A DNA stretch of 64,000 bases from Marsupella aquatica (lineage: Eukaryota > Plantae > Marchantiophyta), in assembly GCA_973895155.1 (NCBI GenBank), contig OZ316894.1, positions 22,291,867 through 22,355,866 on the forward strand, read 5' to 3'. The translations under genes were made by a program, and so were the position numbers. The notes below the pieces were generated by a model that was given only the letters and a program-made list of their open reading frames with translations, did not search any database and was not told the origin of the DNA. This document shows positions 13,906 to 64,000 of this stretch, one piece after another; within the stretch, counting starts at the first letter, position 1, and each line of letters starts with the position of its first letter.

Positions 13906-16392
13906 TTAATCTGTGCCTGCAAAAAATGGTCTCCTGGCAATTTCCCATTCTGTCGAGTTCCTAGTCTTCGTCTTGTACCTTCGATAAATCTTCCTACCAA
14001 TCATATCCTCTTCAAATTTGTCACCAACAAAAAATGTATTAACAGCCCCTGGAAAGAAATTTGATACTGCAAGGACCCAGTTGAGAGGTAACCATGCCAT
14101 GAATATGTATTTTGCTGCTACTATAGCTCCGAGTATACCGAAAACGAAGCCCCCATACGGATACAGAGTGAAGACCTTGGGAGAGATTGGCAGTTCCATT
14201 GTTGCCACAGATGTCGATGTTGATTCTCTGCATAGATCAAGAAAAAAACAGGACTCTTCAGGTGGTAGAAGGAATAGCAATGACGTAACACTATCTCTGG
14301 AGTGATAAGTGTGACTTTTCTTGGTTAGGACACTGCTTCTGGCTGACAAATCCACATCATCATGATCTTCAGCTCATCTACTAACATCTAAACATCTCAA
14401 GGATCTAAGCAGGTGGGGCTCTCCATCAATGTTACAACACCAGAGATTGAACATTCTATGGAAAAACTCGAAAAAATCCCAAATTGGGGTCAAAAGTAGA
14501 TAGGGCAACGGGCTTCAAAGATTCACATTACCTCAAGTCGTTAAACTCATTAAATGGGGATACCACCCCACTTTGTCCCCAAGACGAACATCGCAGAAGT
14601 GTGAAGCCATTTTCAACTGCTCGAAATGCATCAGCTTTAAACTGATAATTTGCCATCGGTCCCCATGTCCAGCTGGGTTGAATCATGATGTCCACCCTGT
14701 GCAGTCACGAAAGAGATATAAGACAAACTTCGAAAGAAATTTCTGCAGATCTGGATAGAGAAGATTCTTATCGTCATTAGAATTTCTTCGCTTATATTTC
14801 CTTTCTGTGAGTAAATGAAGGATGAAAAAATTATGTGCAACGTTTAGCTTTTGTCTTGGTCACATACCAACCAAGGATGAAGGTTCCCAATTTAACAAGT
14901 TTTACAAGGCATGAAGTGGTGTTGCTGAGAAGCCCTTTGAAATTCTCTTTAAGATTGTGCAGTACATACAAAATCAAGAACAGAGAGAGACGTTAAGAAC
15001 TGACCCCAGGTATGATGCTTGTTTCAGCAATCTGGGGAACTGGTAGTCAAAGCAAATGGCCGCACTAACGGTTCCAAAGGGAGTATCCACAGCTTTCAAT
15101 TCACCAGGGCCTGCAATGGTTTCCATCTCCACAAATGGCACTGGGTTTGTCTTCTCATACCGAAATCCAACTGATCCGTCCGGTAGCATGAACGTAAAAA
15201 CATTGAATTGTGAAGCAACTTGCCCTACCTTCATTCCATCTAGTACCTTGGCGTAAGACAAGCCCAAGTACGGTCCATGGTCAAGTGCAACAAATTCCTT
15301 ATCACTTTTCAGATTAAGTTCCTCCCTCTTCACCTGCTCCAACAAAAGTAGCTGCCGAGCCCTGGAAATAAGTTCATCCTCACCTTTCTGCCCATAAACT
15401 ATTGTGGCTGTTTCAGACCAGACAATAAACGCATCTCCAGCCTTTGCTCGGTCTGAAGTTGCATTCCATAGGAACTCACTGGTGAGACGCTCCGTGTCCG
15501 CGACATAGCTGGGCTGCCTCAGAATACAAGACGCTGGTACGGTGGGTTTGATTGTATCGTTGATCCCTTTCTCGAAAAAGCTGCCAGAGAAAAACACCAC
15601 TTTAGCTCCTGAAATCAATAGCGAGAGGATCAGGATTGCGCTCCAGATTTTTACGAGCCTGTCATGAGTCTGGACCTTCTTTGCAAACTCCTTGGTGGTC
15701 AATTTCTGACCAAGCCTTCGGGATCCTTCTCCGTACGAATCGCTATCACTATCAGCTTCCATGTCATCAACAAGATTAGCACCAGCTGCTGTTACAGTCC
15801 ATGAACTTTCACCAGCTTCCTGTCTCAATTGCAGGCGCTGGTGCAGAAGGGCAGCGGTCCATGCCATGAAAAACACTATACCATCAACGCCCAAGCGAGC
15901 TACCGTGAGCACAATGGGCTGAATGCCGTGCTGTGTGTAGGCAGGATTTCCGGTTGTTCCAATCGGCGACAAGGTGGCTGAAGTATGCCACATCGTCATC
16001 CAAACAACTGGGAAAGCAAACGGATGGGATAGAACGGCCGCTGGGAACCGCTGCTCGTAGTAAACAGTTGTCACAAAAACAAGGAGAAGAACGATCCAAG
16101 CGAGCAAGCTCACGGAGCCTACTGTCAACAGTCCGGTCCAGGTGAAGTAGGGATCGTTCAACTCAGCTGCGTAAGCAATTGTGTAGCCCAGGGTTTGCGT
16201 CACGAGAACAAGCAGCAAAAGGCCAAGAAATTCGCTCAGCTTCCGCTCCAGAACTTTGGCATGGTGCAGAAACTGGAGGAGAAGCAGAGGCTGGAGCCAT
16301 TCCAGGATAACAATAGATTGTAACCCTGCGAAGGCCGAGCACACTCCTGACCCGAGTAACAGAAAGTAAACCTTCCAGCTGACGTCCTCCAT
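13906..16392 (-). CDS. Apolipoprotein N-acyltransferase (Lnt)-like membrane carbon-nitrogen hydrolase, 624 aa; exons 16392-15005, 14696-14532, 14227-13906
   Basis: Multi-TM N-terminus with LSPIGTTGNPAYTQ and ARLGVDGIVFFMAW. Nitrilase-fold triad motifs IVWSET, YEKTNPVPFVE and AAICFDYQFP. Exon 2 reads VDIMIQPSWTWG...FRAVENGFTLLRCSSWGQSGVV and exon 3 reads LPISPKVFTLYPYGGFVF plus a TM segment. Two GT-AG phase-2 introns join in frame. Confidence 0.9.
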
Positions 16393-17169
16393 CTCTGTTT
16401 ATCTTTCTGCTCTTTCTCTCTCGTCGAATGGGGACGGCAGAGGCTACACAAAGATAGCAGACTGCTTCTCCGTAACTTACCCCAATTGGGGTTGGAATAA
16501 ACTCGAACCCAATTCCATTCAGTTTTCTCGCTCTCTCACATAGGATTCGCCTCCCTACAAAACCTTAATCGCGTACAAAAAGAGGCGGCAGGCAACAAAA
16601 TCACAAAGAATTCGCCTCCCTACAGATGTTCAAACCCCAGACCCACCTCCACGAAGGGCTCTTGCAGTTTGATCCCAAGGGAAATCTCAAATCTGCCTCA
16701 CAACTCCCGAGTCTCTTGTTTGTCCATTTCAGATGTCTTCCATCAGCATTTCCGCTCTCCGGAGCACAATCATGAATGGCAACAGTTCTCTGTGTGATAA
16801 TCCGAGTGCTCAATTGCTGGGCAGAAACTCGGAATGCAGACCTGGTCGTGGGGAAGAGCTCTACAGTAATGTACTGTGCATCTTGTAGCAAATGGCTCCT
16901 CTTTTTCCAGGCTCAAGCCTTTAGAAGGACCCACATATTTGACCGGATCACGCCATGGCACAATCTGCCCTTGCCGGATGGGGAATCGTTGGACGAGAAG
17001 GGTTGCGTTGCGAGTTTTGCTCGTCAATCAATCATGAGACTGGGCCAGAGGATAGAGGAAGGAATTGCACAGAGGTCAGTTGACTTCGAGGTTCTGTCTC
17101 ACTGATCTCGTGAAACTCTGGAGTATAATTGGTTTTTAGGGGGGTGTTACCAAATTACCTGTAAAATGT

Positions 17170-19217: not shown

Positions 19218-21198
19218 CTATGAAGTAAAGTCTTGGTCTAATGGAGGTCTGAGGGTGAATCTGCGCAACCACAAATCATACATTATCATGTGGAATGTAT
19301 CGTAGTCTTGCGGAGGAGAGTTCCATGTGAAGAGACGGCGCACAATGCCCACGTTTCGATGCAGCGTCTCGTACCTCTCGTCCGAGATGGACTTCAGGAT
19401 GGTCTTCAGAGCGCCCACTTGCGATTCTTCCACAATCACTGCGAACTCCTTCCAATCCAAGATGTCACTGAAAGGGAGATCGAACTGGTCCGCCAAAATC
19501 ACAGGTACGCATCCGAACAAGATCGCATCCCCCATTCGAGCCGTGTGGACCTGCAATGAATTTGTCCACGCTCATCATCATCAGATCACTCCCCAGAATT
19601 TTAAGCTTGTGGAATTCCTGGTTGTGAATTCTCAGCAACTATCCGGAAGGAGGCGTAATTGCATGCAAAGCCACGAAATCACAAAACCTCACAATCATGC
19701 AGCTTCACAATTGTTAAGTTTGAATGGGTCTCTTTTGTTCAGTTGCATTCCCACTCAAATTTCGAGTTCAAGATTCCTCGATCATCCCTTCATTCCAGAC
19801 AGAGCATGGTAACTATGTCTGCGACTTGAGAACCAGAGCCGTAGGAGATTCGCAATAAAATCATGCAACGCGTGAGCACTCGTTGCAAGTTGAGAATCAG
19901 GTTATCAGGAATGATGAGGGTTTCTCTGCCTGGCATGATCCTGTTCAGCTTGGTCGAGCTAGTCCGTCAATTCCAGCAGAGAATTTATTAATGATGTCCA
20001 ATTAATTCAAGAAGCAAAAGTCGGGATTTGCAGCACGGCAGTTACTTGCCTGGTATCCTTTAACATGAAGGCAATACTTCGCCTTCCGGAAATTGGCGAA
20101 GTAGTCTTCCCCCTTCACTTTCTGATTCAACACTCGGCCTCCTCCGAGTAAAATCTCGTCGTCGTCCGACCACGTCTCCCATAGAACTTTCCGCACTGCG
20201 GAGTTCTGAGATCCGGCCCAAAACGCCAGAATCTTACTAGCTTTCCTGCACAATCATGTGCATCCAGGCAAATTAATACTTTCACGAAGCTATCTAGACC
20301 AATGTACAATTTGTAAGTGAGTACCCAGTACGTCGGACCACAAGCGATTGCTCTCGAGAGCCGCTCTCGAACACAGATTAATTAATTTAGTCTGTACTCA
20401 CCGCTCTGCTGCGGAGAGGCCTCCTGGTTCGTGGCCGTAGCGAGGCCAGATTTGCGGGAACGAGAAGTCCTTCGTGGGGATGTAGTTTCGCTTCCAGCGG
20501 CTGGCAGGGCAGATAATCTGAATCGCTGACCCGCTGAGATGCGGAGTTTTCACTGCAGCGTCCACGCCAATGTCATGGCAAGTGAAGTAGAAATGATCAG
20601 CTCCACCGGTCCGATTCCAGTATGGCCACTTCTGTCTCACTGTCTCCTCCATGTACTCTCTCACGAACGGGGACACCGAGGTCGGCCCGATCGCCATCCG
20701 CAGGCCCAAAACCGAGAACGGAAGCGCGAAGAAGTGCCCCTCGTTGGGATCATCCGTGCGGAACTCCGACTCATGCAAGTTTCGGAAGAGGTAGGGCTCG
20801 CTCGCATAGCTTCCGTATGGGAGTCGAGCCTCTTTCGGCGCACCATGCCCAAACTTGCCCTTGGAGTCGTTGGCGGGGTGAGGGTAGATGTATATCTTGA
20901 GGTTCTCCTTCATGTCGGCATAGTCTGCTGCGAACACCTCCCGCGAATGGAAGAGGGGCTCGCTCATCCATTTCGGTGCTGTAACATTCGTCGAGGTAGT
21001 CAGGTGAGACGAATTCGAAGCCTTGCGCGACTGAACACGCAGCGCTGCTGATGATGATACTTCTGTACTTCCAACGATCAAAAGGATTGATGCAAGGTAA
21101 ATTGGGACAGCTACCATAGACAGAAGACTAGGTAGCACATGAAGTGCTGGTGATGACGGACGAATCAGCCTCACTCTGCTTTGATTCCGTAAAGCCAT
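19218..21198 (-). CDS. Exostosin-family glycosyltransferase (CAZy GT47), 441 aa; exons 21198-20402, 20245-20050, 19550-19218
   Basis: N-terminal TM anchor. Motifs LKIYIY, YASEPYLFRNL, WPYWNRTGGADHF, LAFWAG, KAKYCLHVKGY, ARMGDAILFGCVPVILADQFDLPFSDILDW and YDTFHMIMYDLWLRR. Splice phases are consistent. Intron 2 has a GC donor. Confidence 0.95.
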
Positions 21199-22542
21199 TT
21201 CGGGCTAGGTACGTCGCACAGATCGTGTCTGTTATATTTCGAACATGCTTAATTCAAGCTCATCCTAGGAATAAATTCGGCTCGTCATACCGTAGCTAGA
21301 GGTCTGATTCTTGAGAAGCTGACGTTAGAACCAGAATTGGCTTCGTTCCATCCGTCTACAGCCTGCTCGTTGAATCGATTTTGAGCCGGAGAGGGCTACA
21401 GAGTTGAGTGGATCCCGAGGTAAACATGAAGTCCGGCCTCGATTTCATGCATCGAAAGCAATACCAGAGCACTAGTGTCGGAGTCAGAGGGCTGTGTGAC
21501 AGGATGTTGACGGAATAAACACCATGAGATCGAATAAGCATGATTATTTATGCTTTAGAAAACTGGCTCTGATTCTCAGCTCTCCTGTACATCGAGCGAA
21601 AAGTACGGTAGTGGCACCTAATTATAGCTCGGTTCTTCTTGGATCCCGGGAGATCGAGTCCATCGAAGTGAGATTTCATGATAAATCTTCATTCAAGAGT
21701 GGACCAGAAGTCCTCCACTCGATCACACAACGAGTCAATTCAAGGCATGTGGCCCGAAAGACGAGGGCTGCCAATCTGCATGTCTTTGTAGCGTCCTCAC
21801 TCCATTGAAAACACACAATTCACACAAAGCTTCGAAAGAGAACATTACAGTTCGTACTATAACTGGTACATTATGATTAACAGTACGCATCGTGACCGTT
21901 TCTCCACTGAGCACTAGGCAATCCGACATCACACCATGTCACACCAGGTCAACGAGGGGAGGGAGCAATCACGAGACATGGAGTGCTGGGTCTTGGAGAT
22001 CGAGTTCCATTAGGCCTGGCTGGGATCAACCACGCAACCAAGTGAACACAGATCTCATCCAGAGCACTGGCCACCTCACACGGACACCAAGAAAAGACTC
22101 GAGGCCACGTCCCGATAAATATACATGCGACGATCCAAAAGCTTTTGTCTGATCGAATATCAGAATTCGAGTCATATTTTAAACGACGAAAGCTCGGCAA
22201 AGGAATCTCCGTAATTGGACCCCACATTCAAAGCTCCGGACGACCAGCAGGGCCCTCCAAATTGGATTGTGCATGGCTGGCTCGAGTTTTTCTTGGTTGT
22301 TTCCCACCAGACCTCAAAGAACTCATATTACTATTGAATGGACTTGTCGTCGCTTGAACGGTATTTATTTTTATGAGCAAGCCAGGCACAAAATCGCCTT
22401 TTTGCCTCGCTTTTTGCCCAATTCTCGGGACAAGCGATGGTTCGGATCGATCTGCTTTCTCCAAAATAACCATGAGCCAAAGCGATGGAAGCAAACTAGC
22501 AAAGTACTATGATAGAGATCATTCCTGTGGCCAAAGAACAAA

Positions 22543-23030
22543 TTATTAAAACCCATGCCAGGATTGGAGGACGAAAAGCAGTGCCGCCGTCTACAGCAGA
22601 TCGCCGCCGTCTATAGCAGATAACTTCATGGACACCCGGGAGGAGTGGAGGACCGGTGCTGAAGAAATAAGTTATTCAGTAAGTACATCATAGATAGATA
22701 CAGGTTTTGTCATGGCTAGTGGTGGTTAAAAATATTATAAAATGGTTTTTAAATAGAACTCTACTGACTCTAGGTTCAAGACCGTCACCATGATTGAACC
22801 ATCGTAAGCACTCTCTTGAATCTTGATTCTAAAGATTCGACGCAAAAGAAGAGTCAGTGAGACTTCGATGGCCATCGTTGACAAAACGATAGAATCACGT
22901 TTCTTCAGCACCGGTCCTCCACTCCTCCCGGGTGTCCATGAAGTGTTCAAGCTACAATTTGTTTTCTTATGATCTGCTGTAGACGGCGGCACCGCTTTTC
23001 GTCCTCTAATCCTGACATGGGTTTTAATAA
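22543..23030. repeat. Long inverted repeat (arms 22543-22668 and 22900-23030) around a spacer of about 230 bp
   Basis: TTATTAAAACCCATG...GACGAAAAGC.GTGCCGCCGTCTACAGCAGATC...ACTTCATGGACACCCGGGAGGAGTGGAGGACCGGTGCTGAAGAAA is matched by its near-exact reverse complement. Confidence 0.92.
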
Positions 23031-23233: not shown

Positions 23234-24070
23234 ACCGCACGTTAAATCTACACCCCAGAAATGCTCCCCAATTTTCTTGGGGCCCCGTACACTGCCCGTC
23301 CCAGTTCCCAATGTTGCTCCTCGATCCGGCCCGAGTTTGCCAGAACATAAAATAAGACTCTATCATTTTGTCACCCGCTCCAGCCCGATTAATATTGTGC
23401 CATCGACTTTAGGTTTATGTGTTGGCACCCTTCAATTTTTGTCGCTCGCTCCGGCCTGATCAACTTTGTGCCATCAACTTCTTCCTTGTGGAGTTGTGGT
23501 TTATGTTTTGGCAACATTTTTGTCTAATAAATTAAGTCATGCCCGGCTAGGGAGTCATGCTTGCTTCGTAAGAGAGTCTAAGTGTTCAAGTACAGCCTAG
23601 TACTTTGGTTAAGAATCATGATTGATAGAGTCTTGGTTATTGTTCTGCCAAATGTTTCTTTTCTATGGAGTTGTGGTTCTTGTTCTGGCAACAGTTCTTT
23701 CCAATGGAATCATCTTTGTTTCATAATAGAGTCTAAGTGTTCAGGCAAAGCCTGGTACTTTGCATGAGAGTCATGATAAATGATAGAGTATTGGTTTATG
23801 TTGTGACAAACTTGGACCGGAGCAGGCAACAATAATGGGGACTTGGGCTGGAGTGGGCGAAAGCAAGTGAAGGGTGCCAGAACACAAACTCAAACTCGAT
23901 GGCACAAAGTTGGTCAAGCCGGGGCATGTGACAATATGGTAGAGTTTTGGTTTATGTTCTGGCAAACTTGAGCCGGAGCGGGCAATAACATCGGGGACTG
24001 GGACGGGCATTGTACGGGGTCCCAATAAGATCGGGGAGCATTAATGTAGTGTAGATTTAATGTGCGGTAC
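23234..24070. mobile_element. Foldback-like element with imperfect inverted arms of about 230 bp built from internal subrepeats
   Basis: Arms at about 23234-23460 and 23845-24070 are reverse-complement homologs. The ORF track shows mirrored peptides GPRTLPVPVPNV..SLPEHK (+) and GPRTMPVPVPDV..SLPEHK (-). Confidence 0.75.
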
Positions 24071-28445: not shown

Positions 28446-29800
28446 CTAGCTCAATACCCGTGCGTTGCACAAAAGAAGTCATGTCGGCCAAGATGTCGTT
28501 GAGAAAAAAAGATGTCGTGTCGGCCAAGAGGTCGTTGAGAGAAAAGATGTAGTGTCAGCCAAGAGGTTGTGGAGAGAAAAAGATGTTGTGTCGGCCAAGA
28601 GGTCATGGAGAGAAAAGATGTAGTGTCGGCCAAGAGGTCGTGGAGAAAAAAGATGTAGTGTCGGCCAAGAGGTCATGGAGAGAAAAGATGTTGTGTCGGC
28701 CAAGAGGTCGTTGAGAGAAAAGAAGTCGTTGAGAAAAAAAGATGGCCAAGAGGTCGTTAAGAGAAAAGAAGTCATTGAGGAAAAAATTTGTCATGTCGGT
28801 CAAGAGGTCGTTGAGAAAGAAGATGTCATGTTGGCCAAGATGTTGTCAAGAAAACAATTGTCATGTTGGCCAAGATGTCGTTGAGAAAAAATATGTCGTG
28901 TCAGCAAAGACATCATTGAGGGAAAAGATGTCATGTTAGCCAAGACATCGTTGAGGGAAAATACCCATGCATTGCACAAAAGATGTCCTTGAAGTCATTT
29001 TGCCAAAGATGCCATTATGTGAAAGATGTTGATAAGAAAAATGTGTCATTTTGCCAAAGATACCGTGAAGTAAAAGATAATATAAAGGAAAAAAGGTGTT
29101 GTTTCATCCAAGTTGTCATTATGTGAAAGATGTTATGAAGTAAAAAGTCAAGGAGAGAAGGAGCAGCCAAGTCTTTTTCTTTGTTTGTATTTTACCCAAA
29201 ATGCCCTTGCATTTGAATGGCGACCACTCTATACATTGGCGCAATGTTATATTATCGGTTTCAGGTTTAAGGTTTTAGGGTTTAGCAAAGATGACCATTT
29301 TATCGCTATCCTTTCAATCCCCGTGCGTTGCATAAAAGATGTTGTTTGGTTAAAGATGTTGTTGAGAAATAGCTCATGGTGCAAAAGATATCATTGAATA
29401 AAAAATTGCACAAAACTTTTTGTTGAATGAAAGATATCATTGTGCAAAATACTGGCCACGGCAGCCACAAAAGTTCCCTTTTTCTTTTTTCTCCTTGCAC
29501 AAAAAAATTCTTTGAATAAAAGACGTTATTGCACAAACCACTGGCTATGACAACCACAAAAGTATAACAAAATGAGAGGTGTTTTTCCCCCCTTTTAAAC
29601 TTTTTTTCCTCTTATGTTCCTTTTAAACCTTAACCTCCCCTTTTCCCCATTTCACCATCACTCCACTCGCTCGCCGCCCCCTCCCTCCCCACCCGTGCGC
29701 GACTGGAGCCCTTCGAGGGGCTGCCTTACATTGCAAGTGTGCCCCTCGCCCGACAACTTGCCATCAACGTCCGTGTCATGCGTTTCACTATGTCTTTGGG
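28446..29800 (-). mobile_element. Non-autonomous Helitron-like element carrying an internal satellite; 3' end at 28446
   Basis: The minus strand ends GTGCAACGCACGGGTATTGAGCTAG|T, a typical plant Helitron subterminal hairpin plus CTAG-T. A related element lies at 61850-62246. The 5' end is not defined. Confidence 0.68.
28475..28960 (+). repeat. Tandem satellite of about 34 bp (GTGTCGGCCAAGAGGTCGTGGAGAGAAAAGATGTA), more than 10 copies, decaying rightward
   Basis: Directly visible. It produces the repetitive pseudo-ORFs in the track. Confidence 0.95.
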
Positions 29801-49758: not shown

Positions 49759-52562
49759 TCAACTAAAGTCAAGAGACGGTCTGGTGACAAATCTGCGGAG
49801 CCACAAGTCGTACGCAATCATATGGAAGATATCGTAGTCTTGCGGGGGAGAGTTCCAAGTGAAAAGGCGGCGCATGATCTGAACATTGGCGTGCAAGTTC
49901 TTGTACTGGTTGTCGGGTACAGCCTTAAGAATTTGTTTCAGGTTGGGTATTTCGGACTCAACAACTATAACAGCAAACTCTGTCCAATCCACCACGTCCT
50001 TGAACGGAAGATCGTACTGATCGGACAGGATCACAGGAACGCAACCGAAGTAGATCGCATCACCGATCCGAGCCGTGGGAACCTGCAAAATTTGCTCATA
50101 GATTGAGCCTTGACGACCTTGAGCAATTAGATGGACATCGAAGCAACGATTGACAGCTAAGCAACGATCTGTAGCTTCGTCAAGATCGATCAAACGTGAA
50201 AGGTTATTTCTCCAAAACAAAATACTTTCATGTTACCGAGATCAAGGTCCACGCAGAAGCCATGCAGTTTCCTAGAATGGGATCCGACTTTCGCATCCCA
50301 TCGGTCTCTGACATATGATCTGTCCGTTCATATTCATATGTAGAATAAATGTGAGCTCGGACCTCGCTGGACGCGCAAGAATTTGGGGGCCAGCGCAGTC
50401 TGACGTACAGCAGAATAAGTACAATAGTAAATCAAGATACGTGCACATCGACAGCACTAATCTTTCTAAAGAAACTAGCACTGGGCCCACAGAAGGAAGG
50501 AATATCTGGAGTTGACGCGATAGTGCATCTTTGCTTCAGGCAATAAAGTACAAAGTATATACATTGCCCTTTAATTTAGTTAAGTGAAAGCATTTCTTCG
50601 ACCCAAAGACGAAGGAAACATCCAAAGTACTCTATCAAACAATTGAGTCACCCAGCTCTAAGCAAGGTGGCCAGTTGAGGGACTCGGATCACATCATCGT
50701 ATATATGCCATTTGATCACAATTACCAAATGATCAAGGATAAACCCGGTTTCAAGAGTTCTGTGGATGTTCTCGCCTACAGGGACCTAACGACCTACAAG
50801 GATAGTGTCAAACACCTTCATGGTACTACGCAACCCACACACAATTGGGTCGCATAGTCGGTCGAAAGTCCTTCGAAATATGATATTAGATATTATTACT
50901 CATCGAGATTTCACAATTGGCGGAACCCGATACTAAGCTACACTTGGACGGGTCCACATGTGAGTACGTACGCATTTGATCGGTTGACGTTAACGGGTCA
51001 ACCTCTTTGATGTACAGACCTGGAACGATAAGTCCATCTCCAGGTAGACTAGACCGCGCGCGACCATCAAATTGAATGACACTCACTTGAGCTAGACGAT
51101 GAATAGATCCAGAGAATTGCAGAGTTGTCTCGGACCTACCGAATTCAACGTACTTGATCGAAGACAGTTATTAAACGGATGACAGTTTGGACAGTACTCA
51201 AAAGTGCCTCGAGTGCATACCTGGTACCCCGATACGTGGAGACAGTACTTTGCTTTCCGGAAGTTGGAGAAGTAATCTGTCCCTCGGACGGCTTGCGTCA
51301 ATAATCTTCCTCCGCCCAGTAAAATCTCGTCATCGTCATTCCATGTCTTCTTCAGCGCTGCACGCCCTCGAGAGTTTTGAGACCCCGACCAAAACGCTAG
51401 TATCTTGCTGTTTTTTCTGTACATTGTGACATACACATCGCACGATCAGTTAATTTGACAACTGATAGGCGAATTCAGATCATATAAATTATGCTTGCAC
51501 AAAAACATACACTTAAAGTCTGTCTTAAACTGCATCAGAGAAATTCAAGTTTACGCTTTCGTCCATGCTTCATTAAGACGACAACGATGAACAGTAATGA
51601 GTAATTTTGGAAAAGCTGGGAATAGATCTGTAAGTGTTGAACAATTGAGACTTGAGAGTTCTCCTGATTGATAGCTTTGGCCTATATAGCTGCTCAAGAA
51701 AGTTAAAGTACATTCATTTAATTTAGGACTGTGGCCTGGCTCAATTTGCTCCAAAAGATCTTTCGCAATTGCTCCAAAATTAAAATGATCGATATATCGA
51801 GCGAGTGATTACCGTTCTGCTGCAGAGAGGCCGCCAGGTTCAGTATCGTATCGCGGCCAGATCTGTGGAAAGGAGAAATCCTTCGTTGGGATATAATTTC
51901 TGTGCCAGCGGTCGGCAGCGCAGATGATCTGAATGGCGCTGTAACTAAGGCCCGGAGTCTTCAGTGCAGCGGATCGACACGCCCAGATCATGGCAAGTTC
52001 CATACAGATGGTCGGCTCCAGCGGTTCGATTCCAGTACGGCCATTGCTTCCTCAGTGTCTCTTCCATGTATTGTTTTACAAATTCCGAGACGTTACCCGG
52101 CCCAATTGCTAGGCGCAGCTTGAACACCGAGAAAGGGAGCACGAAGAAGTGCGCCTCGCTCGAGTCATTGGTGCGCATATCCGTCTCGTGCAAATTTCGG
52201 AAGAAGTAGTGCTCACTGGCATAGTTGCCGGACGGTACAGGCTCGTCGGGACTGTATCCAAACTTCTCGGTCTCGTTGGCCGGGAATGGGTAGAAGTATA
52301 TCTTCAGCTTCTGCTTCATCTCGGCATAGTCCGCCGCGAACACCCTGGGCGAGTGGAATAGTGGTGCCTGCATCCATTCGGGTGGTTGCAACACTGCCGT
52401 CGATCGAACACTACTTCTAAAAGATCGTACCGATCTGTCTGCTGCCGTAATTACGAATCCGAGGAGAATCAACAAGCACACAAATCCCCCTCCACGGTTT
52501 CCAAAAACCCAACGACATGACCGAACCCTGCCCAGCAGCTTATTATAATCCCTAGGCGCCAT
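49759..52562 (-). pseudogene. Second exostosin/GT47 paralog with a +4 frameshift in exon 1; exons 52562-51813, 51416-51221, 50082-49759
   Basis: Same exon structure as 19218-21198, including a 196-nt exon 2. At about 51971-51977 it reads GGC GTG TCGATCC GCT GCA where the paralog has GGC GTG GAC GCT GCA, so the frame switches from CHDLGV to AALKTPGLSYSAIQ. Confidence 0.88.
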
Positions 52563-53542
52563 CTCGATTGCTTGGGAGTTAGTTTCAATCAATAAATTGG
52601 ACCACCGTGATCTATCTACATGGGCGATCTCTCACCGCAAAGGAAGGAAGAACACGATCGAGCAAGAAAGAGAAGGACCCCCAAGATTTACAATTATTTC
52701 CAAAACCTTCTAATCAAATTTACAGTCAATTTTTCTCTCTATTTGAAATCAATGGAACCTTTTCGCTGCCTGAAGCTTCACCCACAGAGCAACATTGCAC
52801 GTCCAACCAATTCAACTTTTAATTCACTGGCACTGGACACGAACTAATACTGCACCAACAATCACCCTCAACGTTAATTTCTATCCACCGAGTGACGACT
52901 AAGAGCTCTCGATCTACTCACGATCACGTCCAAGATATAGCAGTATACCATCGATGAATGCACAATGGATCGATCGATCCTCCACTCCGAGTCGTAAGAG
53001 ATCGATCATTCTGTACGTCCACATGCCCAATTTTGCACTACTGTAAATTTGAAGAGATCGGGTTATATAGGGTAGCTGGGCAAAGAGGCTCGATCCTGTG
53101 TGCACTGAGTGTCAATTGGGATGTGCACGTAGAGAAACGAGAGCACTCGACGGAGATCCACCACGAAACTGAAACTAATGTGCCAGGTCTGATGAACGCT
53201 GGACTATGCATTGTCGCTATGCAAACGACGAGGAAAACTCCTTCATATATAGACAGCAAACAAATCGCCGAACTGCTGAATAGCATCGGCACTCTGCGTC
53301 ACATGATACGCAACTGGGAATTTCTTCGGAAGTCGAAGAATTGGAAAAGAGAATTGGAAAAGTATGCCAGTAAGCGTCCATTATTTGTCCTTTTTTGCCT
53401 TGAAAGAAAGCATACAAACAGGTGTCCCAAAGAGCAACACCGGGGGGCCAAAAGGCCAGATGTGCCAATTAAAAAACCAAAGGGGGCGGTACGAGAGATG
53501 CAAAGCCTTCCTGGAGAAACAAGCAATTTAACTCCTGCACTA

Positions 53543-54107: not shown

Positions 54108-54287
54108 TAGGAGCAGCACACTCCATGAGACGGCCAGTGCTCAGGTTCCAGGTTCCATTGAGTGGGTCCATGATAGACTTACTTTACTATCAGTGTAAAT
54201 TGCAATGAGGCATCTAATCCCAGGAACCAAACTGAATTCATGGTGGACGGGGTGGGACCAAACTGAATTCATGGTTGACGGGGTGGG

Positions 54288-54598
54288 TGAAGAGATTTAG
54301 AGAAAGAACTTAATACAAATCACCCATAAGCCCCTGGATAAATACTAGAGGGGAAGGGAGGGTAAGCCGGCCAAGAGCCACACAGGGCTAATCCTATAGA
54401 TAAGCAGAAACGACACCTAGAAGCTACAAGTCAAAGAACAAGGGCCCATGCCGATATATACAGGATTACCAAGGGATAAGCAAGATCATGATAATGTACA
54501 GCTAATGTAATCGCCACACGATAGTATACAGCTAAGATCAAGTTGCCACAGGGAGTGGCGCAAAGTCTGGTTGACCATATATGACCATATATTGAACA
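54288..54598 (-). repeat. 3' LTR of the copia element (311 bp)
   Basis: TG...CA termini. Direct repeat of 59841-60146. Confidence 0.95.
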
Positions 54599-54759
54599 CC
54601 CTCTCTTCAACCAGACACCAGAAGTCAGAGTGGAAAGGTAAACGCAGTCCAGCTGGAGGAGAATGGCGGAGTCCAATGATCGTTGTGGAATGCAGTAGGA
54701 GACAGTACTGCGATTGGCAACTATTCGAATATGTCGATTGGTAGGACCAGCAGCCGGCA

Positions 54760-55137
54760 GTGAAGGGGCAGCGGTGGAGCGGGCGCCGATACATGGGGAG
54801 TATGAAGAGTAGGTGCATGGTCGAAGCAGCAGATTGTGAGGAGCAAGCACAAGGGCCAGTGGCGAGAATGGTAATGGAGAGGGAAATAGTGACACAGGAG
54901 CGGCCGACGGTAAGGGCAAGAGGTTTGCCACGTTATTATGCAATTGCTATCGGGAGGAAGCCAGGGATTTATGTGTCATGGGAAGCAGCAAGCAGGCAGG
55001 TAACGGGATTTCGAAACAACCGACTTGAGATGTTCAAGTTACGTGCGGAAGCGGAGCAGTACCTAAGGAAGGAGTTAAATGTTGGTGCAATGTCAACTGA
55101 AAACAGAGAGCGGTTGAGACAAGTAGTAACATGGTAG
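54760..55137 (+). CDS. Antisense accessory ORF in the copia 3' UTR encoding an RNase H1 N-terminal hybrid-binding / caulimovirus viroplasmin (Cauli_VI-type) domain
   Basis: 54931-55065 encodes RYYAIAIGRKPGIYVSWEAASRQVTGFRNNRLEMFKLRAEAEQYL, matching the YYAVxxGRxxGIYxxWxECxxQVxGFxxAxYKxFxxxxEAxxYL pattern. The start codon is uncertain. Confidence 0.8.
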   Translation: MKGQRWSGRRYMGSMKSRCMVEAADCEEQAQGPVARMVMEREIVTQERPTVRARGLPRYYAIAIGRKPGIYVSWEAASRQVTGFRNNRLEMFKLRAEAEQYLRKELNVGAMSTENRERLRQVVTW

Positions 55138-55169
55138 TAAAAAGTAGAACAGTGAGACGACCAAGTAGG

Positions 55170-58100
55170 CTAGACATTACCCGGGATGAGGGATAATGGT
55201 CGCAGCCCAATAGAACGTCGATGTTTCTCAAATAGTTGGTGGCCAACGGCTTTGGTGAAGATGTCGGCATGTTGTTCATCAGATCAAAGCAATGAATCTG
55301 AGTGCAATTTCTTTTTCGAGAATACGTTCACGTACAAAATGATGCTTGGCTTCAATATGTTTGGTTCGTGCATGGAAGATTGGGTTGAGTGCCAATTTGA
55401 TTGCACCTTGGTTGTCCCAATTGAGATGAACGTCTTGTAGAGTTGGAGTAGAAGCATGTGCGAGGTCAGAGTTGATGTAATGATTCTGGCAACCAAGCTC
55501 CACAGACTTTATAGGTGGAGGAAGAACGTTAAGTTCAAGCAGCATGCGCGCGTCTGAGATAAACGGCTTCCTTGGTAGCTTCACTGAGTGCCTTGTACTC
55601 AGCTTCGGTGGTGCTATCGGATACAGTAGACTGGCGTTTACTGGACCAAGAAACCGCTCCATCAGCAAGATTGAAGACATAGCCGCCAGTGGACCTTCTA
55701 GTCTCGATGCAACCCAAGTAATCAGCATCGGTATAACCAGAAAGGGTTATCTGAGATCCCAGCTTGAAGAAAATCCCATAGTCAATAGTTTTCTTAATGT
55801 AGCGGAGGATGTGTTTCACTGCATCCATGTGTTGTTGTTGTTGGGGCTAGGACATAAATCTCGCCACCATACCGACAGCATACGAGAGATCATTCAGGTC
55901 GAGTATTAGTAAGGAACAACAACTTTCCTACAATTTGACGATACTCAGTAATGTTGACAGCTGCAATACCAATATTAGACTGAGTCACAAACCCATCAGG
56001 TAGTGGGGTGTGCTCAATTCGACAGTCTGACATGTGTAGATCCTCAAGAATATGTTGAGCATAGCCATGTTGATGCATCAGGAGACCCTAATCAGATCGT
56101 ATGAACTGGACGCCAAGATACTTGGTGATCTCGCCAAGGTCCTTCATCTCATATTTTTGCTGAAGTTGTTGCTTAACTTCAGAGATTTTTGTTGGACTAT
56201 TGCCTGTGACAATAAGATCATCAACATAGAGAAGGAGTAGAACAATTGTTGGGCCATCATGTAGAAAATAAAGATTAGGGTCCGCTTGACTCCGAGTCCA
56301 ACCCTGGGACCTTAAATATGAATCTATTTCATGATACCAAGCATGTGGAGATTGTTTTAAACCGTATAGGGACTTTCGGAGCTTACAAACCAAATGTTCA
56401 CTACCCTTGACCTCAAAGCCTTGCGGTTGAAGCATGTAAATAACCTCTTCAAGATGTCCATTAAGGAAAGCGGTCACAACGTCCATATGTGAGATGGGCC
56501 AACCAAGAGCTGCAGCAATAGCTATGATGGTCCGAAGAGTTGACCAGCGCACAACTGTACAGATGCAAAGGTTTTGTTGTAGTTGATACGGTATTGTTGC
56601 TCAAAGCCACGAGCAACCAATCTTGCCTTTAATCGAGTCCTTACCGCAGAGGTTCCATTGTTAATGGGTTTAGCTTTGTAAACCCATTTAGCTGAGAGAG
56701 CGTGCAGGCCAGGAGGGAGTTTAGCTAGTTCCCATGTTTCCTTTTTGATTAAAAGGAATCAAATTCTTCCACCATGATAGCTGCATTCCATGATCCTGGA
56801 TCAGAATAGGCCTCATCAAAGGTAAGTGAATTGGTTATTGGATCTCCTGTCTCAACCACAAACAAATCAACATTGTCAGGTAGATATAGTTCATGATCAT
56901 GAAATTTACTTGGAAGTTTCCCACGAGTTGATCTGATCGAGGCCCTTGTAGCTCGTCTAGTAGGAGGTGGTGACTCATGAGCAACTGGAATTAAATCCAA
57001 TCTTTCTTCTGCATCATCAACATCTGGTTGAACTGGATCTTGAGCTTGGTCTTCGTGAGCAGCATCGTAAGTAGCATCATTGGTAGCATCACCAGTATTG
57101 TGAGCAATAGCATCAGTAGCAGCCAGGTCCAACCGGGTCTTGAGCTCGAGCTTGATCCCTCTCTTGTTCGTGTGGAGCCACTGACGAGTCAAGGACAGGT
57201 AGTAGATGATCAAAGAAGGAAGGATCAGGTGCGGGAGAGTTAAAGGAGCCAGCGGAATCCTCGATAAAGGCAACATTGGGGCTAATAAGAATTTTTTGAC
57301 TAACAGGTCAAAGCAGCGATAGCCTTTAGTATGAGAATCATAGCCAACAAAGACACTTGGAATAGCTTTGGCTTGCAATTTTGTACGAAATTTTTCAGGA
57401 ATATGGACAAAGGCAGTGCAGCCAAGAACTTGTAGATGAGAAAGATCGTGCTTGACACCGGTTAATGCTTGAAACAGTGTAGAGAGATGGAGTGCACGAG
57501 TGGGGCAACGGTTGAGAACATAGGCAGCTGCACTGAGTGATTCCATCCAGAGAAAGCTGGGGAATTTTGAATCAATAAACGTGGATCGAGCGGCTTCTAG
57601 AAAGGTACGGTTTTTACGTTCAGCAACACCATTTTGGTGAGGAGTGCTAGGGGTAGTGAGTTGACGCCTATTAATGCCATGAGTTCAATGGCAATAAGTA
57701 CTAAATTCTTGGGAGAGATATTCACCTCCTCGGTCTGTCCAAAGAGCAGAAATTTTGGTAGAGAACTGTGTCTCAACCATCATTCCAAACTCTTTGAATT
57801 TAGTGAAAGCTTCACTTTTGTGGGTAAGAAAATATACCCAAGTAAACCGGGAATAATCATCGATGAACGTAAGTAAATACTTGAGACTGGATGAGGTGTT
57901 CACCAGTCCACATAAATCAGAGTGGATGAGTTGAAATGCGGCATTAGAGCGAGTACGAGATTTCTTGGGAGCTCGTTCAATCACGGTGATGCTTAGCCAC
58001 TATACAGGAGGAACATTTTCTTTTGCATAGAGGAAGAGTTGGAATATATACCAGTTGCCAGATTGTGCTTGGTCATGTGATATGCTGACTAAAAATTGAT

Positions 58101-59702
58101 GTGGCTTAGACGTCTATGCCAGAGATCAACAAGATTAGTGGAAACTTGAGTGATCTCGAGTGCATGTAAAACATCCGGTGAAGCAGCAACCAAGGGGGCA
58201 TGCAACTGGTTGGCGTTGTTGAGTTGAGGTCAAGTGTTGGAGATGCCGAGAGAACCAAGAAATCTGCTCGCCAAGTAAAGTAGTTGATAGCCGGTAAAGT
58301 CCATTTCGTGGATTTTGAGAAGCTTTGAGAGCCACAAGGTGTGGGTTGTCTCGATCAAAGACGTAACACTCTTTGGAGTCAAAAAGAACAAGATAACCAG
58401 AGTCAGTTAGCTTTCCAACAGACATGAGATTCTTGTGTACACCTGGCACGTAAAGAACATTGCTCACCCGTGTGCTCACCGGGGTGCTCACTGCTTTATT
58501 ATCAACCTTAACTGTGCCCTTTCCCAAAATCGGGAGTTTAGAGCCAGCTGTTGTAGTGACAGTAGGACCATACGAGGTCCTAGGGACAAACTCAGATAAT
58601 CCTACTTGAGCTCCAGCAATGTGATTGCTAGCGCCAGAGTCTAGGTACCATTCTGGTCCTAGTTCAGTAAGATTGCCTGGCAGTAATTTCTCCTGAGGTC
58701 GGGTGAGAGAAATCTACATGGTCATGAACGTTGACATCAGCTGTCTCAGTGAGGTGGCCCTGTGGTTTGAAATGACGTAGGCCAGATGCACGGAGCTGGA
58801 GTTGAGCAATCTGATCATCCACTTTCTTCAGGTCACAGTCTACTTCCCAATGGCCTGGCTTGTTGCAGTAGTTGCATGCTCTGACCCGGCCCCTGCCACG
58901 ATCAGCTCTCTGGTCAGTCTGGTGGTGGAAACATGGGCGCTGGTTCTGAGCACGAAAGCCACGACCCGTTCCATATGAAGGATTACGGAAGCGAGTCATG
59001 ACCAAGGCTTGTTCCTGGGTATCATGCATCCTGATACCCACGTCGCCAGTATTCTTCAGCCTGGAGTTTTTCCACCAGGTTGGCATAAGTTGGTTGAGGA
59101 TGCCTGGAAAGATCAGAGCCAAACACAGAAATAAAGGGACCCCAACTCTTTGGAAGTCCACGAAGTACAACATGCATCAGCCTGGTCTTATCATGATATA
59201 TCATGAAAATTGATTGGTGAGGTCCTCAATCTCTTTTAAGAAATTTTTGACATAGTGCCTTCAAGCATACGGATAGACTGCAACTTGTTTTTGATTAGCA
59301 GCCAGCCCTTCATTGGATCAGATCACCTCCAAACCGTTCCTTGAGATGATTCCATCCTGCAACTGGATCATTCGAGTAGTTTAGAATTGTGGGCAGGAAC
59401 TGGTCCTGCACAGTCGCCATCAAGATTGACTTTGCCTTTACCTTGAGTTGGCGGATCTGCTGAGGGGTTTGTTGAGGTTGCTGGACCCGGGGAACGTTGT
59501 CACCTTCTTGATCAGCATCGTCATTCTCAACGTCACCTGCAGGAGGGATCAAGTTATTAGAATCGGTATCTTCTCCTGCAAAGTTGAGCTCATCCCAGAC
59601 TTCATCGCGTTCTAGTAAAGTCTGCACACGAGCACTCCAGCTAATGTAATTCTTGGACCCTTCGAGCTTAGCATTGTCATTGAACAAGCGGGCTAACTCC
59701 AT
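55170..59702 (-). pseudogene. Copia gag-pol polyprotein with multiple frameshifts
   Basis: Gag: KLEGSKNYISWSARVQTLL and zinc knuckle CNYCNKPGHWEVDC. Protease: WYLDSGASNHI. Integrase: LWHRRLSH, IHSDLCG, FIDDYSRFTWVYFL, TDRGGEY, QNGVAERKNRT. RT: MDVVTAFLNG, LYGLKQS, LLYVDDL. RNase H: GYTDADY, TKHIEAKHHFVRE, ADIFTK. Confidence 0.96.
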
Positions 59703-59828
59703 TGCTATTTACTCTAGCTACTGAGGGAGAGCTTCTGGCTGACATCCACGACAGACAGACTCTTTAGCTGGCTAGAGACTTCGCTTCTAAGCGGACTTCT
59801 CCTCTAACTCTCTAGGACCATATCTGGA

Positions 59829-59840
59829 GCTCTGATACCA
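59829..59840 (-). other. Primer-binding site complementary to initiator tRNA-Met
   Basis: TGGTATCAGAGC on the minus strand immediately after the 5' LTR. Confidence 0.92.
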
Positions 59841-60146
59841 TGAAGAGATTTAGAGAAAGAACTTAATACAAATCACCCATAAGCCCTTGGATAAATACTA
59901 GAGGGGAAGGGAGGGTGAGTCACCCAAGAGCCACATAGGGCTAATCCTATAGATAAGCAGAAACGACACCTAGAAGCTACAAGTCAAAGAACAAGGGACC
60001 CATGCCGATATATACGGGATTACCAAGGGATAAGCAGGATCATGATAATGTACAGCTAATGTCATCGCCACACGATAGTATACAGCTAAGATCAAGTTGC
60101 CACAGGGAGTGGCGTAAAGTCTGGTTGACCAATCATATATTCAATA
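59841..60146 (-). repeat. 5' LTR of the copia element (about 306 bp; terminal TG mutated to TA)
   Basis: Direct repeat of 54288-54598, flanked by the GTGGG TSD. Confidence 0.95.
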
Positions 60147-60151
60147 GTGGG

Positions 60152-61520
60152 ACCTGTGGAACTTGAAGCCTGTCCCAATGTATAGTCCAAAGACCAACAT
60201 GTGCCCCATAGTCAAAACACATGTGGGCCTGAGAGGTGGTGGACTTCCCTGGATCTTTGCACTTCCCAGTATCTCAACTGCCAAAGGAAGCAATTCTCAG
60301 CCGCTGCCCAAAATGGGAGGCAGCCAAGTATTACTCCTGAGGACCCTCCTGTTAGAATACCAATTAAGGATCGTAGCCCACTTCTCAATGGCTTTACGCA
60401 CCCCTGCCCTGGCTTGCCCTGAACATAGCCTTCTCATTTTGACCAGCCCAGACGAAGGTAGTGAGTTTTTTCTGCAAAGCATATAGTGTCTTTGGGTGAC
60501 CAGCCTACACATTGTGCTCATGATCAGGTGATTGGCGACTGTGACCCGGGCGATGAGAGACCCTGACCTCTTCCTAATCCGATCAATCCGGGACTCCAAG
60601 CAATCAGACAACGTTTTCACCAATTGTTCCAAATTTATGTGTTGGGCCATGGGAATACCGAGTAGTTTGGAGGCATTTGTATCATCTTCCCAGGTCCAGG
60701 GCAGATATTGGAATTTTGTGAGGACTAGGCCAGCAGGAATGAAGGCCACTTCAAATGGTTTGATCCCAAATACAATGAAGCCAGATGCCATTCCGAAAAG
60801 GTCCAATTGGTCACGGCTAAACTGCACAAATCTCATGTTAGCCCAGATCAGCAGCACAACGTCATCCGCGTAGAAGTTGTGCACATTGTGTACCCCAATG
60901 GATGGAATGTTAACCCCTACAAGCTCACAGATAAAGCTTATTGAGGGTGTTGATGGCAATTATGATGAAGAGTAGGAGACAGAGGGCACCCATGTCTCAC
61001 AGATTGTTCCAAAGAGAAAGAATTGGCCATCTGCCCGTTGAGTAAAACCGCAGATGTGGTAGAAAAAAAGCTAGCCCGCAGGAATTGCATAAGGAGCCCA
61101 TCAAAACCAGCTTTCTCCATGAGCGAGAGAAGAAAATGTTATTCAAGCTTATCAAAGGCCTTGGCAACATCAAGTTTCATGAGAATGTATTGTAGGCCTG
61201 ATGTTTTGGCCAGATGGAGGAGCTCACTGAGAAGCAAAAGAGAGTGGTGGATGTTGCATCCCGGTGGAAAGGCAACTGCTGCGGCAAAATGAAATGCTGA
61301 AGGATAGGAATGAGTCGCAATTGGAAAGCTTTAGCCCCTATTTCGTATGTCACGTTCAGCAGAGTGATGGACTGCTTGTTGGTAAGCAGGAGCTGGTAGT
61401 TTTTCTTGCACAGCAGGATGATAAACCCCTCATGAACTCAAATGAGAAAGTGCCTTCTGCCATGCCATGGAGGGTTGCCCTGTGGAGGGAGGGCCCCTCC
61501 CATAAGAAGGTTGGGCCCAA
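60152..61520 (-). mobile_element. Degenerate L1-like LINE reverse-transcriptase fragment, adjacent to and probably interrupted by the copia element
   Basis: Across frames: ITLLNVTYEIGAKAFQLRL, LMKLDVAKAFDKLE, QSVRHGCPLSP, HNFYADDVVL, SKLLGIPM and RVTVANHLIMST. A continuation at 54111-54287 is likely but unverified. Confidence 0.9.
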
Positions 61521-62846: not shown

Positions 62847-63896
62847 CTAATGATCAAGACAAAACTCATTTGAACAAGAAAGTCTGCTTCCTGATTTATC
62901 ATAGCGGATGTCACGGTTGCAAGTATCTCTCGCATGGTGGTTCTTAAACTTATTGGTGAGATCCCTAGTTCTGAGAACTTTCCAAATAAAATGCCTTCTA
63001 TTTTGTGTATGAGGACCAGAATAGTTGTCTCCAAGTATTACGTTTGCAGTTTCTTCGATCTCATCCGTGGTCCACGTCTCCAGTGGTGGGTAATGCTGCA
63101 CCTCGTTCTTTCCGTCCCAAGGAATCTCTTCAGGAGTCACATCCAAGATGGTTCCAAACTCCCTATGGATACAACGACAATCTCCCCACTTCTGTTCCAA
63201 AAGAGCATAGATGGCAGCATGATCCTCCTTGCTTGTTAATAAATTGAAAACAGACCACTTTGGATTGTTGACAGTGATATAATGTTGAACGCAGTAAGCC
63301 TTTCTCAATTTGCAAAGATACGGCCATAATATCTCGGGCAAAAAAGTGTCATTTGAAGCTGTGTGAGTAAATGGATTTGGAAACAATCCATTCACGTCAT
63401 AATTCAAAAATGCCTTCAATGGAGAATCATCAATAAGAACTGTATTAGAAGCATCATATTTTTCTGGAAAACGGTCCCAAATGGTTTGCAAATTCTTCAG
63501 AAGTAAATTGGCCTTCCCATCTGTTATATCTGGCCTTTGGATGCAACTATCAAAGGTATCTTCTTGAGTAAAGACAAACTTGAACTTTTGTCGCTCCTCC
63601 TCAGTGAAAATCAACTCCATTAAGTCCATTGTTTTTGGCCTCCTTGCACAGGTCCAAATTGCGACGTCAAAAACCATGAAAGCTGCATATAGAAATTTGT
63701 GGAGGTATGGGCGCTCCACATACATGAAATTAAACCCTCCACGTCTCCCCCAGTGCACACCACGTAAACTTGTCTGATTTCGCCATGGTCCTGAGCTTCT
63801 GGTCTTAATGCAATCCCAACAAATCTTGTTAAGGTCAAGAACCAAGAGCTTTCGCCGGATCGGAGAGTGTAGTATTGGAGTGAATTCTGGAAACAT
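62847..63896 (-). CDS. Intronless FCP1/SCP-like (NIF-domain) HAD-superfamily protein, 349 aa
   Basis: RKLLVLDLN (motif I variant), YVERPYLHKFL, FDVAIWTCA, LLKNLQTIW, YDASNTVLIDDSPLKAFLN and NDTFL. Confidence 0.85.
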   Translation of the reverse strand: MFPEFTPILHSPIRRKLLVLDLNKICWDCIKTRSSGPWRNQTSLRGVHWGRRGGFNFMYVERPYLHKFLYAAFMVFDVAIWTCARRPKTMDLMELIFTEEERQKFKFVFTQEDTFDSCIQRPDITDGKANLLLKNLQTIWDRFPEKYDASNTVLIDDSPLKAFLNYDVNGLFPNPFTHTASNDTFLPEILWPYLCKLRKAYCVQHYITVNNPKWSVFNLLTSKEDHAAIYALLEQKWGDCRCIHREFGTILDVTPEEIPWDGKNEVQHYPPLETWTTDEIEETANVILGDNYSGPHTQNRRHFIWKVLRTRDLTNKFKNHHARDTCNRDIRYDKSGSRLSCSNEFCLDH

Positions 63897-64000
63897 TAAT
63901 ATAAGCCTTAGTCAATGCGACTCAAAGTTTAAACAATTACTACGGAGGAAAACTCTCAAAATTTGAAATCAAACAAACTTTGTTATAGCATTTGAAGTAG

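Follow-up and report, generated by a model that had tools for sequence, protein, structure and literature searches.

We explored a 64,000-nucleotide stretch of the genome of the liverwort Marsupella aquatica (assembly GCA_973895155.1, contig OZ316894.1, positions 22,291,867 to 22,355,866 of the forward strand; hereafter the window, with positions counted from its first letter) and found at 54288–60146, on the minus strand, a decayed copia retrotransposon with the broken remains of what is likely a genuine antisense accessory gene, belonging to a copia family of low copy number. The gene encodes an RNase H1-type N-terminal domain (PF01693) and is defined by its position between pol and the 3' long terminal repeat (LTR), by its domain and fold, by sister copies that also carry it and by relatives built in four parts. 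That it is real and selected we consider highly probable; given a real gene, a role in duplex binding is somewhat probable, and we tentatively propose an accessory protein, under selection and non-catalytic, that would hold duplex intermediates of the element itself, shielding or positioning them. Antisense extra open reading frames (ORFs) are already known; what is likely new is that such a gene should occur in a copia family and carry an RNase H1-type domain whose binding face is altered.

The element is a Ty1/copia LTR retrotransposon by its LTR pair, target-site duplication (TSD; GTGGG at both ends), primer-binding site (PBS), polypurine tract (PPT) and domain order (Table 1). The LTRs differ by 12 substitutions in 303 aligned sites (Kimura two-parameter distance 0.041, computed with the low LTR shortened by 2 nt). 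On the minus strand the PBS reads TGGTATCAGAGC, which we take to be of the initiator-Met type, and the PPT reads GGTTGAAGAGAGGG. Pfam matches give the minus-strand order gag, protease, integrase and reverse transcriptase (RT), the latter of RVT_2 type, with the integrase preceding both RT and RNase H; the RNase H was placed by tblastn with the intact relatives P0003–P0005, which also allowed RT and RNase H to be mapped up to the pol stop at 55170–55172. Since pol is split into many frameshifted pieces, this copy of the element is dead. The interval between pol and the 3' LTR is about 570 nt. A half-tRNA PBS is reported for the copia elements Osser and Bryco, that of the window element being of the full-tRNA type (PMC6317226). 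An Rfam scan over the element gave no match, and tblastn of its RT against phages returned nothing, as expected. In all three intact relatives the EAVYLRR-type motif of RNase H is separated from the CDN motif by 40 residues, a spacing that in copia elements is typically much shorter, and a stretch matching this long insert lies at 55400–55548 (minus strand) in the window; the insert may be a lineage marker and might serve for docking.

Between pol and the 3' LTR, a plus-strand stop-to-stop frame (54745–55137, 130 aa, first in-frame ATG at 54793) runs tail-to-tail with pol, the two stops lying 32 nt apart. An earlier sequence-only reading had described this ORF as an accessory gene ending at 55137, inside the LTR and TSD boundaries and with no sign of a separate insertion. 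The peptide that it quoted is exactly contained in the frame, the pol stop, the edge of the 3' LTR and the plus-strand frame lie where it had placed them, there is no poly-A/T run of at least 6, and the two ends of the pol–LTR interval share no direct repeat of at least 7 nt. A nested insertion was rejected because a poly-A tail and flanking repeats are absent, and the sense-strand ORFs at 54486–54932, 54431–54946 and 54969–55169 were rejected as shadow frames, since none spans the interval and relatives match the plus-strand frame. What the earlier reading had missed was the broken state of the gene and the conserved N- and C-terminal helices beyond the domain. With the N-termini of the uninterrupted relatives P0155 and P0157, tblastn matched 54705–54764 (E about 1e-6) and, weakly, 54680–54697 (E 0.03), and blastp supported these remains too (E 4e-6). 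The matches fall in two reading frames other than that of the domain, which is itself interrupted by a stop at 54742–54744. Because the N-terminal segment survives upstream in other frames, the noted ORF is the 3' part of an antisense gene of about 160 codons whose start, judged from the alignments, lies near the PPT and whose frame is interrupted in the window copy.

Searches and cluster look-ups among Logan records recovered six close clusters besides the window gene (P0001/P0155, P0135/P0156, P0157, P0023, P0002 and P0159). P0155 (161 aa) and P0156 (162 aa), whose frames are both open over their whole length, consist of a Met, a Cys/Trp-rich 34-residue segment, a variable acidic linker, a basic RPMVRARG-type motif, the domain, a C-terminal extension and a stop; P0157 has the same first parts and ends within the domain. 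Identity between P0155 and P0156 is blockwise (N-terminus 17/34, linker 6/40, domain region 34/55, C-terminus 18/24), and the C-terminal extension of the window gene is identical at about 18 of 24 aligned residues even to P0156, its most distant relative. The N-terminal segment was modelled as a helix, amphipathic and not transmembrane (maximum 19-residue hydropathy about 1.05), and from the basic motif to the end the net charge is +6 to +10 in P0156 and P0155. We take P0155, P0156, P0157, P0023 and P0002 to be copia genes because of their homology across the interval.

The domain assignment, already made from the letters, was borne out by a profile check against PF01693, which aligned residues 63–106 of the ORF to the whole profile (E 8.4e-14, 52 bits against a cut-off of 21). 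Sequence matches in the PDB were human and yeast RNase H1 N-terminal domains only (three sequences, E up to 0.1). An AlphaFold2 model of the last 79 residues of the ORF (predicted local distance difference test score, pLDDT, 87) had 3bsu as its best PDB match, with a root-mean-square deviation (rmsd) of 0.7 A over 46 columns (E 2e-3). A wide structure search ranked 1qhk first (Z 3.8, rmsd 2.3, 46 residues aligned), a result that is weak taken alone. Many models of the caulimovirid transactivator (TAV, or P6) also matched, over about 46–75 columns around the domain, and the best viral structural match was a 177-aa caulimovirid transactivator-type protein with 42% identity over 55 columns; this fits our assumption that the P6 double-stranded RNA (dsRNA)-binding domain is the PF01693 region. 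The full-length model, built on a six-sequence alignment, reached a mean pLDDT of 56, with the N-terminal helix alone scoring well, and its PDB search was uninformative. The RNase H catalytic domain is absent: P0155 and P0156 carry only PF01693, and the window frame stops 24 residues past the domain. In a 44-column tree of 372 domains, the five family domains long enough to include formed one clade (FastTree support 0.999). The placement among homologs suggested earlier was thus obtained for the family as a clade, but the tree gives no donor and leaves the origin of the domain unresolved. Since endogenous caulimovirids are reported across tracheophytes (PMC10377300), a viral donor would be possible in a vascular host.

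Other proteins resemble the family in layout. P0160/P0167/P0169 and P0161 were rejected as members, being alignable at the domain only. P0160 and P0163–P0173 (a JGI cluster of 12) and P0161 (ENA) have one C-terminal PF01693 domain and no RNase H, the longer forms having a hydrophobic N-terminal segment and some members occurring on up to eight contigs; other mobile elements may carry them as cargo. Searches of metagenome and viral contigs for loci of the family or of copia relatives gave pattern matches and no confirmed relative.

The residues by which the human domain binds hybrids are only partly retained. Next to RNase H1 (PF01693; 3bsu, 1qhk), the family is alike in sequence, fold and core motifs, with the YY and GRxPGIY motifs kept and the equivalent of W43 a tryptophan in all seven family rows covering the position, and it adds basic residues on both flanks of the domain. 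It differs in its lack of a catalytic domain, its extra conserved N- and C-terminal helices, its coding by a retrotransposon and the equivalents of K59 and K60. At the first of these sites, five of six family rows (four of five clusters) have E and P0156 has K, whereas the other domains are basic in 321 of 384 and acidic in 17; at the second, M occupies six of six family rows (five of five clusters) and one of 378 other domains, the comparison set being the top matches, mostly multi-domain proteins. In place of a basic pair, the window and three further clusters thus have E/M, and P0156 has K/M. In the human domain, hybrid binding is reportedly compromised by W43A and likewise by KK59/60AA, and a single domain–GFP fusion is diffuse while three copies give foci (PMC10639055, from which the residue roles are taken second-hand). 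The changed pair, the reported effect of KK59/60AA and the single domain of the family protein, which resembles the diffuse single-copy construct, all count against hybrid binding. For the hybrid-binding idea put forward earlier, the profile match, the fold and the conserved tryptophan speak in favour, and the lysine pair speaks against; because K59 and K60 are replaced by E and M in most members, canonical hybrid binding by the family domain is doubtful, and the domain may bind duplexes in an altered way or may bind protein instead.

For the duplex-gripping protein that we tentatively propose, we infer the transcription, promoter, ligand and target as follows. Since the N-terminal remains start about 80 nt inside the LTR edge, antisense transcription is predicted to arise within the 3' LTR or close to it. 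The N-terminal helix may anchor or cluster the protein, the domain with its flanking basic residues would bind either the RNA:DNA intermediates that arise in reverse transcription or the duplex of sense and antisense RNA, and the bound duplexes would be shielded from host RNase H1 or kept near the element's own enzyme. If the protein does shield or grip RNA:DNA hybrids, the element would be an example of a retrotransposon that controls its hybrid intermediates in the face of host RNase H1. A fuller version, in which a plant copia evolved the antisense gene from an RNase H1 hybrid-binding module as the retrotransposon counterpart of caulimovirid P6, protecting reverse-transcription hybrids from host RNase H1 or giving the element's RNase H a hybrid grip in trans, seems to us rather doubtful. 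Since the structure of the domain is solved, its binding residues are known and it can be assayed simply, its function is directly testable.

The same residues bear on an alternative that we regard as unlikely, in which the accessory gene is real and its domain now serves as an adaptor for protein binding, by which a host factor is recruited or disabled. It would account for a K59/K60 pair changed family-wide to E/M or K/M around a preserved fold core and for the conserved family-specific C-terminal helix, and it has a precedent in cauliflower mosaic virus (CaMV) P6, whose dsRNA-binding domain (aa 136–182) binds TOR (PMC5670102, a review); the best viral structural match is also a protein of this transactivator type. 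The retained W43, YY and GRxPGIY and the extra basic residues flanking the domain speak against such an adaptor, and our analyses point to no partner. Had the domain switched to protein binding, the case would parallel caulimovirus P6.

Evidence that the gene belongs to a family of elements came from contigs of four runs (two studies, coded as two organisms), which hold 75–83% of the element's sampled words and include near-identical copies, close variants and diverged copies. One diverged contig contains, in window order, a piece spanning LTR and PPT (54349–54638), a piece at 54704–54780 and a piece at 54873–55135, the first joint being present in three of the four runs and the second in all four. 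Its last piece differs at 44 of 263 nt (17% divergence), the linker between the N-terminal and domain pieces is unalignable at 80%, and the sister has a different stop codon at the same position, with unalignable sequence immediately beyond. Contigs joining the ORF to RNase H (joint 55019–55566) occur in two of the four runs, and a 179-nt variant contig over 55056–55233 is listed in three. Several sister contigs thus carry the ORF, and the sequence is therefore part of the family, rather than private to the window insertion. The expectation that it was no one-off capture held, the ORF standing beside the LTR in sister copies. A contig in two of the four runs joins 54955 to 55658, an internally deleted copy without most of the domain and the RNase H end. 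Contig depths, which are a rough guide only, make the family look low-copy.

At the DNA level, selection on the ORF is indicated only weakly. In the diverged pair, 13 of 31 differences are synonymous, where random placement of the same types of mutation would lead one to expect 8.1–8.6 (P 0.025; with CpG context, 0.048); this mutation-spectrum simulation was preferred to the Nei–Gojobori (NG86) estimate, a dN/dS of 0.36, because the latter is biased low by transitions. In a close sister, all three listed differences in the ORF are synonymous. This evidence points one way, and several facts temper it and the reality of the gene. The test covers one pair and 31 of its 44 differences, those in the fully listed span 54904–55104. 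The mirror frame, which shares third positions, gives nearly the same result (P 0.053–0.068), the other four frames giving nothing. The diverged sister, too, is a dead copy, with a premature stop at residue 105 and Y64D, so that the pair mixes selection with decay. Its contig also runs 465–922 nt past the stop with no match to the window pol at 80%, and so does not tie that copy to pol; the spacer may be longer there, pol may have diverged further, or the copy may be a non-autonomous derivative. Finally, the relatives come from called ORFs, a source biased towards open frames, and their copia origin is deduced from homology. On selection, which the sequence-only reading had suggested testing, coding-type conservation across relatives speaks in favour, and the DNA-level signal is weak. 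None of the three outcomes that the sequence-only reading had named as refutations (no profile match, absence from sister copies, neutral decay) occurred.

These data also bear on whether the ORF is a neutral passenger, that is, a piece captured once from a host RNase H1, from a caulimovirid gene or from some other mobile element and carried along without function, its apparent conservation stemming from recent descent or from a cis-acting RNA or DNA signal near the PPT. We find this quite unlikely. Both copies seen in DNA detail are broken, the selection test is marginal, the family looks low-copy, and capture of a PF01693 gene is on record for a fungal Helitron (PMC4289320). Against a passenger, conservation is blockwise and ends at the stop codon, which is kept with a different codon, and P0155, P0156 and P0157 stay in frame through linkers that cannot be aligned, an outcome with a chance of about 2% for each of them before ascertainment; moreover, neither an RNase H catalytic domain nor a further P6 part was detected alongside, and no insertion scar was found.

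The remaining alternative, a silencing suppressor that binds the element's dsRNA and blocks its processing into small RNAs, is improbable: the domain class does include the P6 dsRNA-binding domain (by Pfam name and structural matches) and antisense transcription would itself yield dsRNA, as discussed in PMC7264820, but the analogy drawn in the sequence-only reading is weakened because CaMV P6 suppression maps to aa 80–110, outside the dsRNA-binding domain (PMC5670102), with no other P6 part detected here. Beyond the shared Pfam family and fold, and the fact that both sit in reverse-transcribing elements, the structural matches detected no other P6 region, and the tree does not show descent from P6.

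Antisense ORFs between pol and the 3' LTR (aORF-3R) are a known class whose roles are described as undetermined (PMC7264820, PMC11963269), and their function is an open question in plant LTR retrotransposons (PMC7264820). Maize Grande gene23, rice RIRE2, Retand TRP28 and PvRetro13 resemble the window gene in position, orientation and retention in sister copies (PMC7264820, PMC11963269, PMC6317226), and a nucleic-acid-binding, regulatory role has been proposed for the class, as for the window gene. In contrast to the copia host found here, the REXdb table gives 3'R domain hits only in the gypsy lineages Retand, Ogre and Athila (PMC6317226, Additional file 4), with Transposase_28, plant mobile domain, SMC and domains of unknown function as cargo in place of PF01693, and the pol–LTR intervals of Retand elements span 2.9–6.6 kb (PMC11963269), far beyond the interval in the window element. 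REXdb does record long extra ORFs in 582 copia elements and names a sense ORF as a feature of SIRE; it counted only ORFs of at least 250 codons (PMC6317226), a minimum under which the window gene would escape it. PF01693 is found neither in the REXdb domain table, which is limited to domains in at least five elements, nor in the text of five supplements (PMC6317226), and our literature search, which covered subscription papers thinly, met no report of a PF01693-type domain in a copia element. Another transposon with a PF01693 gene is the Pleurotus Helitron helpo1.3, whose capE is captured cargo of a fungal DNA transposon, described in one long copy, whereas the window gene lies antisense in an LTR element (PMC4289320).

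Table 1. Parts of the copia element and its antisense gene in the window.
Feature	Position	Strand	Basis or remark
TSD GTGGG, low side	54283..54287	.	sequence
3' LTR	54288..54598	-	LTR pair
Polypurine tract GGTTGAAGAGAGGG	54599..54612	-	sequence
N-terminal remains of the antisense gene, out of frame with the domain	54680..54764	+	tblastn, blastp
Open 3' part of the antisense gene: linker, RPxVRARG, domain, C-terminal helices, stop	54745..55137	+	
PF01693 RNase H1 N-terminal (Cauli_VI) domain	54931..55062	+	W43 equivalent kept, K59/K60 = E/M
Family-specific C-terminal extension (helix, turn, helix)	55063..55134	+	alignment, model
RT end, RNase H and pol stop, frameshifted; insert common to P0003–P0005	55170..55891	-	
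Reverse transcriptase (RVT_2), frameshifted	55893..56889	-	Pfam, tblastn
Integrase core and SH3-like domain, frameshifted	56749..57999	-	Pfam
Protease region (Pol_BBD)	58135..58713	-	Pfam
Gag remains: zinc knuckle; DUF4219 match just under cut-off	58664..59708	-	Pfam
Primer-binding site TGGTATCAGAGC	59829..59840	-	
5' LTR; outer end TA, not TG, on the minus strand	59841..60146	-	
TSD GTGGG, high side	60147..60151	.	

Elsewhere in the window, an uninterrupted 354-codon frame with a NIF/FCP1-like phosphatase domain (PF03031, E 3e-16) lies at 62847–63911 on the minus strand, adjoined at about 60300–61440 by decayed RT motifs resembling those of long interspersed nuclear elements (recognised by eye; one scanned piece had no Pfam match). 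The minus strand also carries two paralogous exostosin GT47 glycosyltransferase genes (19246–21204 and 49759–52631), which point to a plant host, and, at 14974–16398, a long frame of 474 codons whose N-terminal half is hydrophobic and which has a weak carbon–nitrogen hydrolase match below cut-off (E 7e-4), presumably similar in layout to apolipoprotein N-acyltransferase. Finally, a 35-nt tandem array occupies 28451–29371, and two large inverted-repeat structures, one of them resembling a miniature inverted-repeat transposable element, lie at 22543–23030 and 23234–24068.

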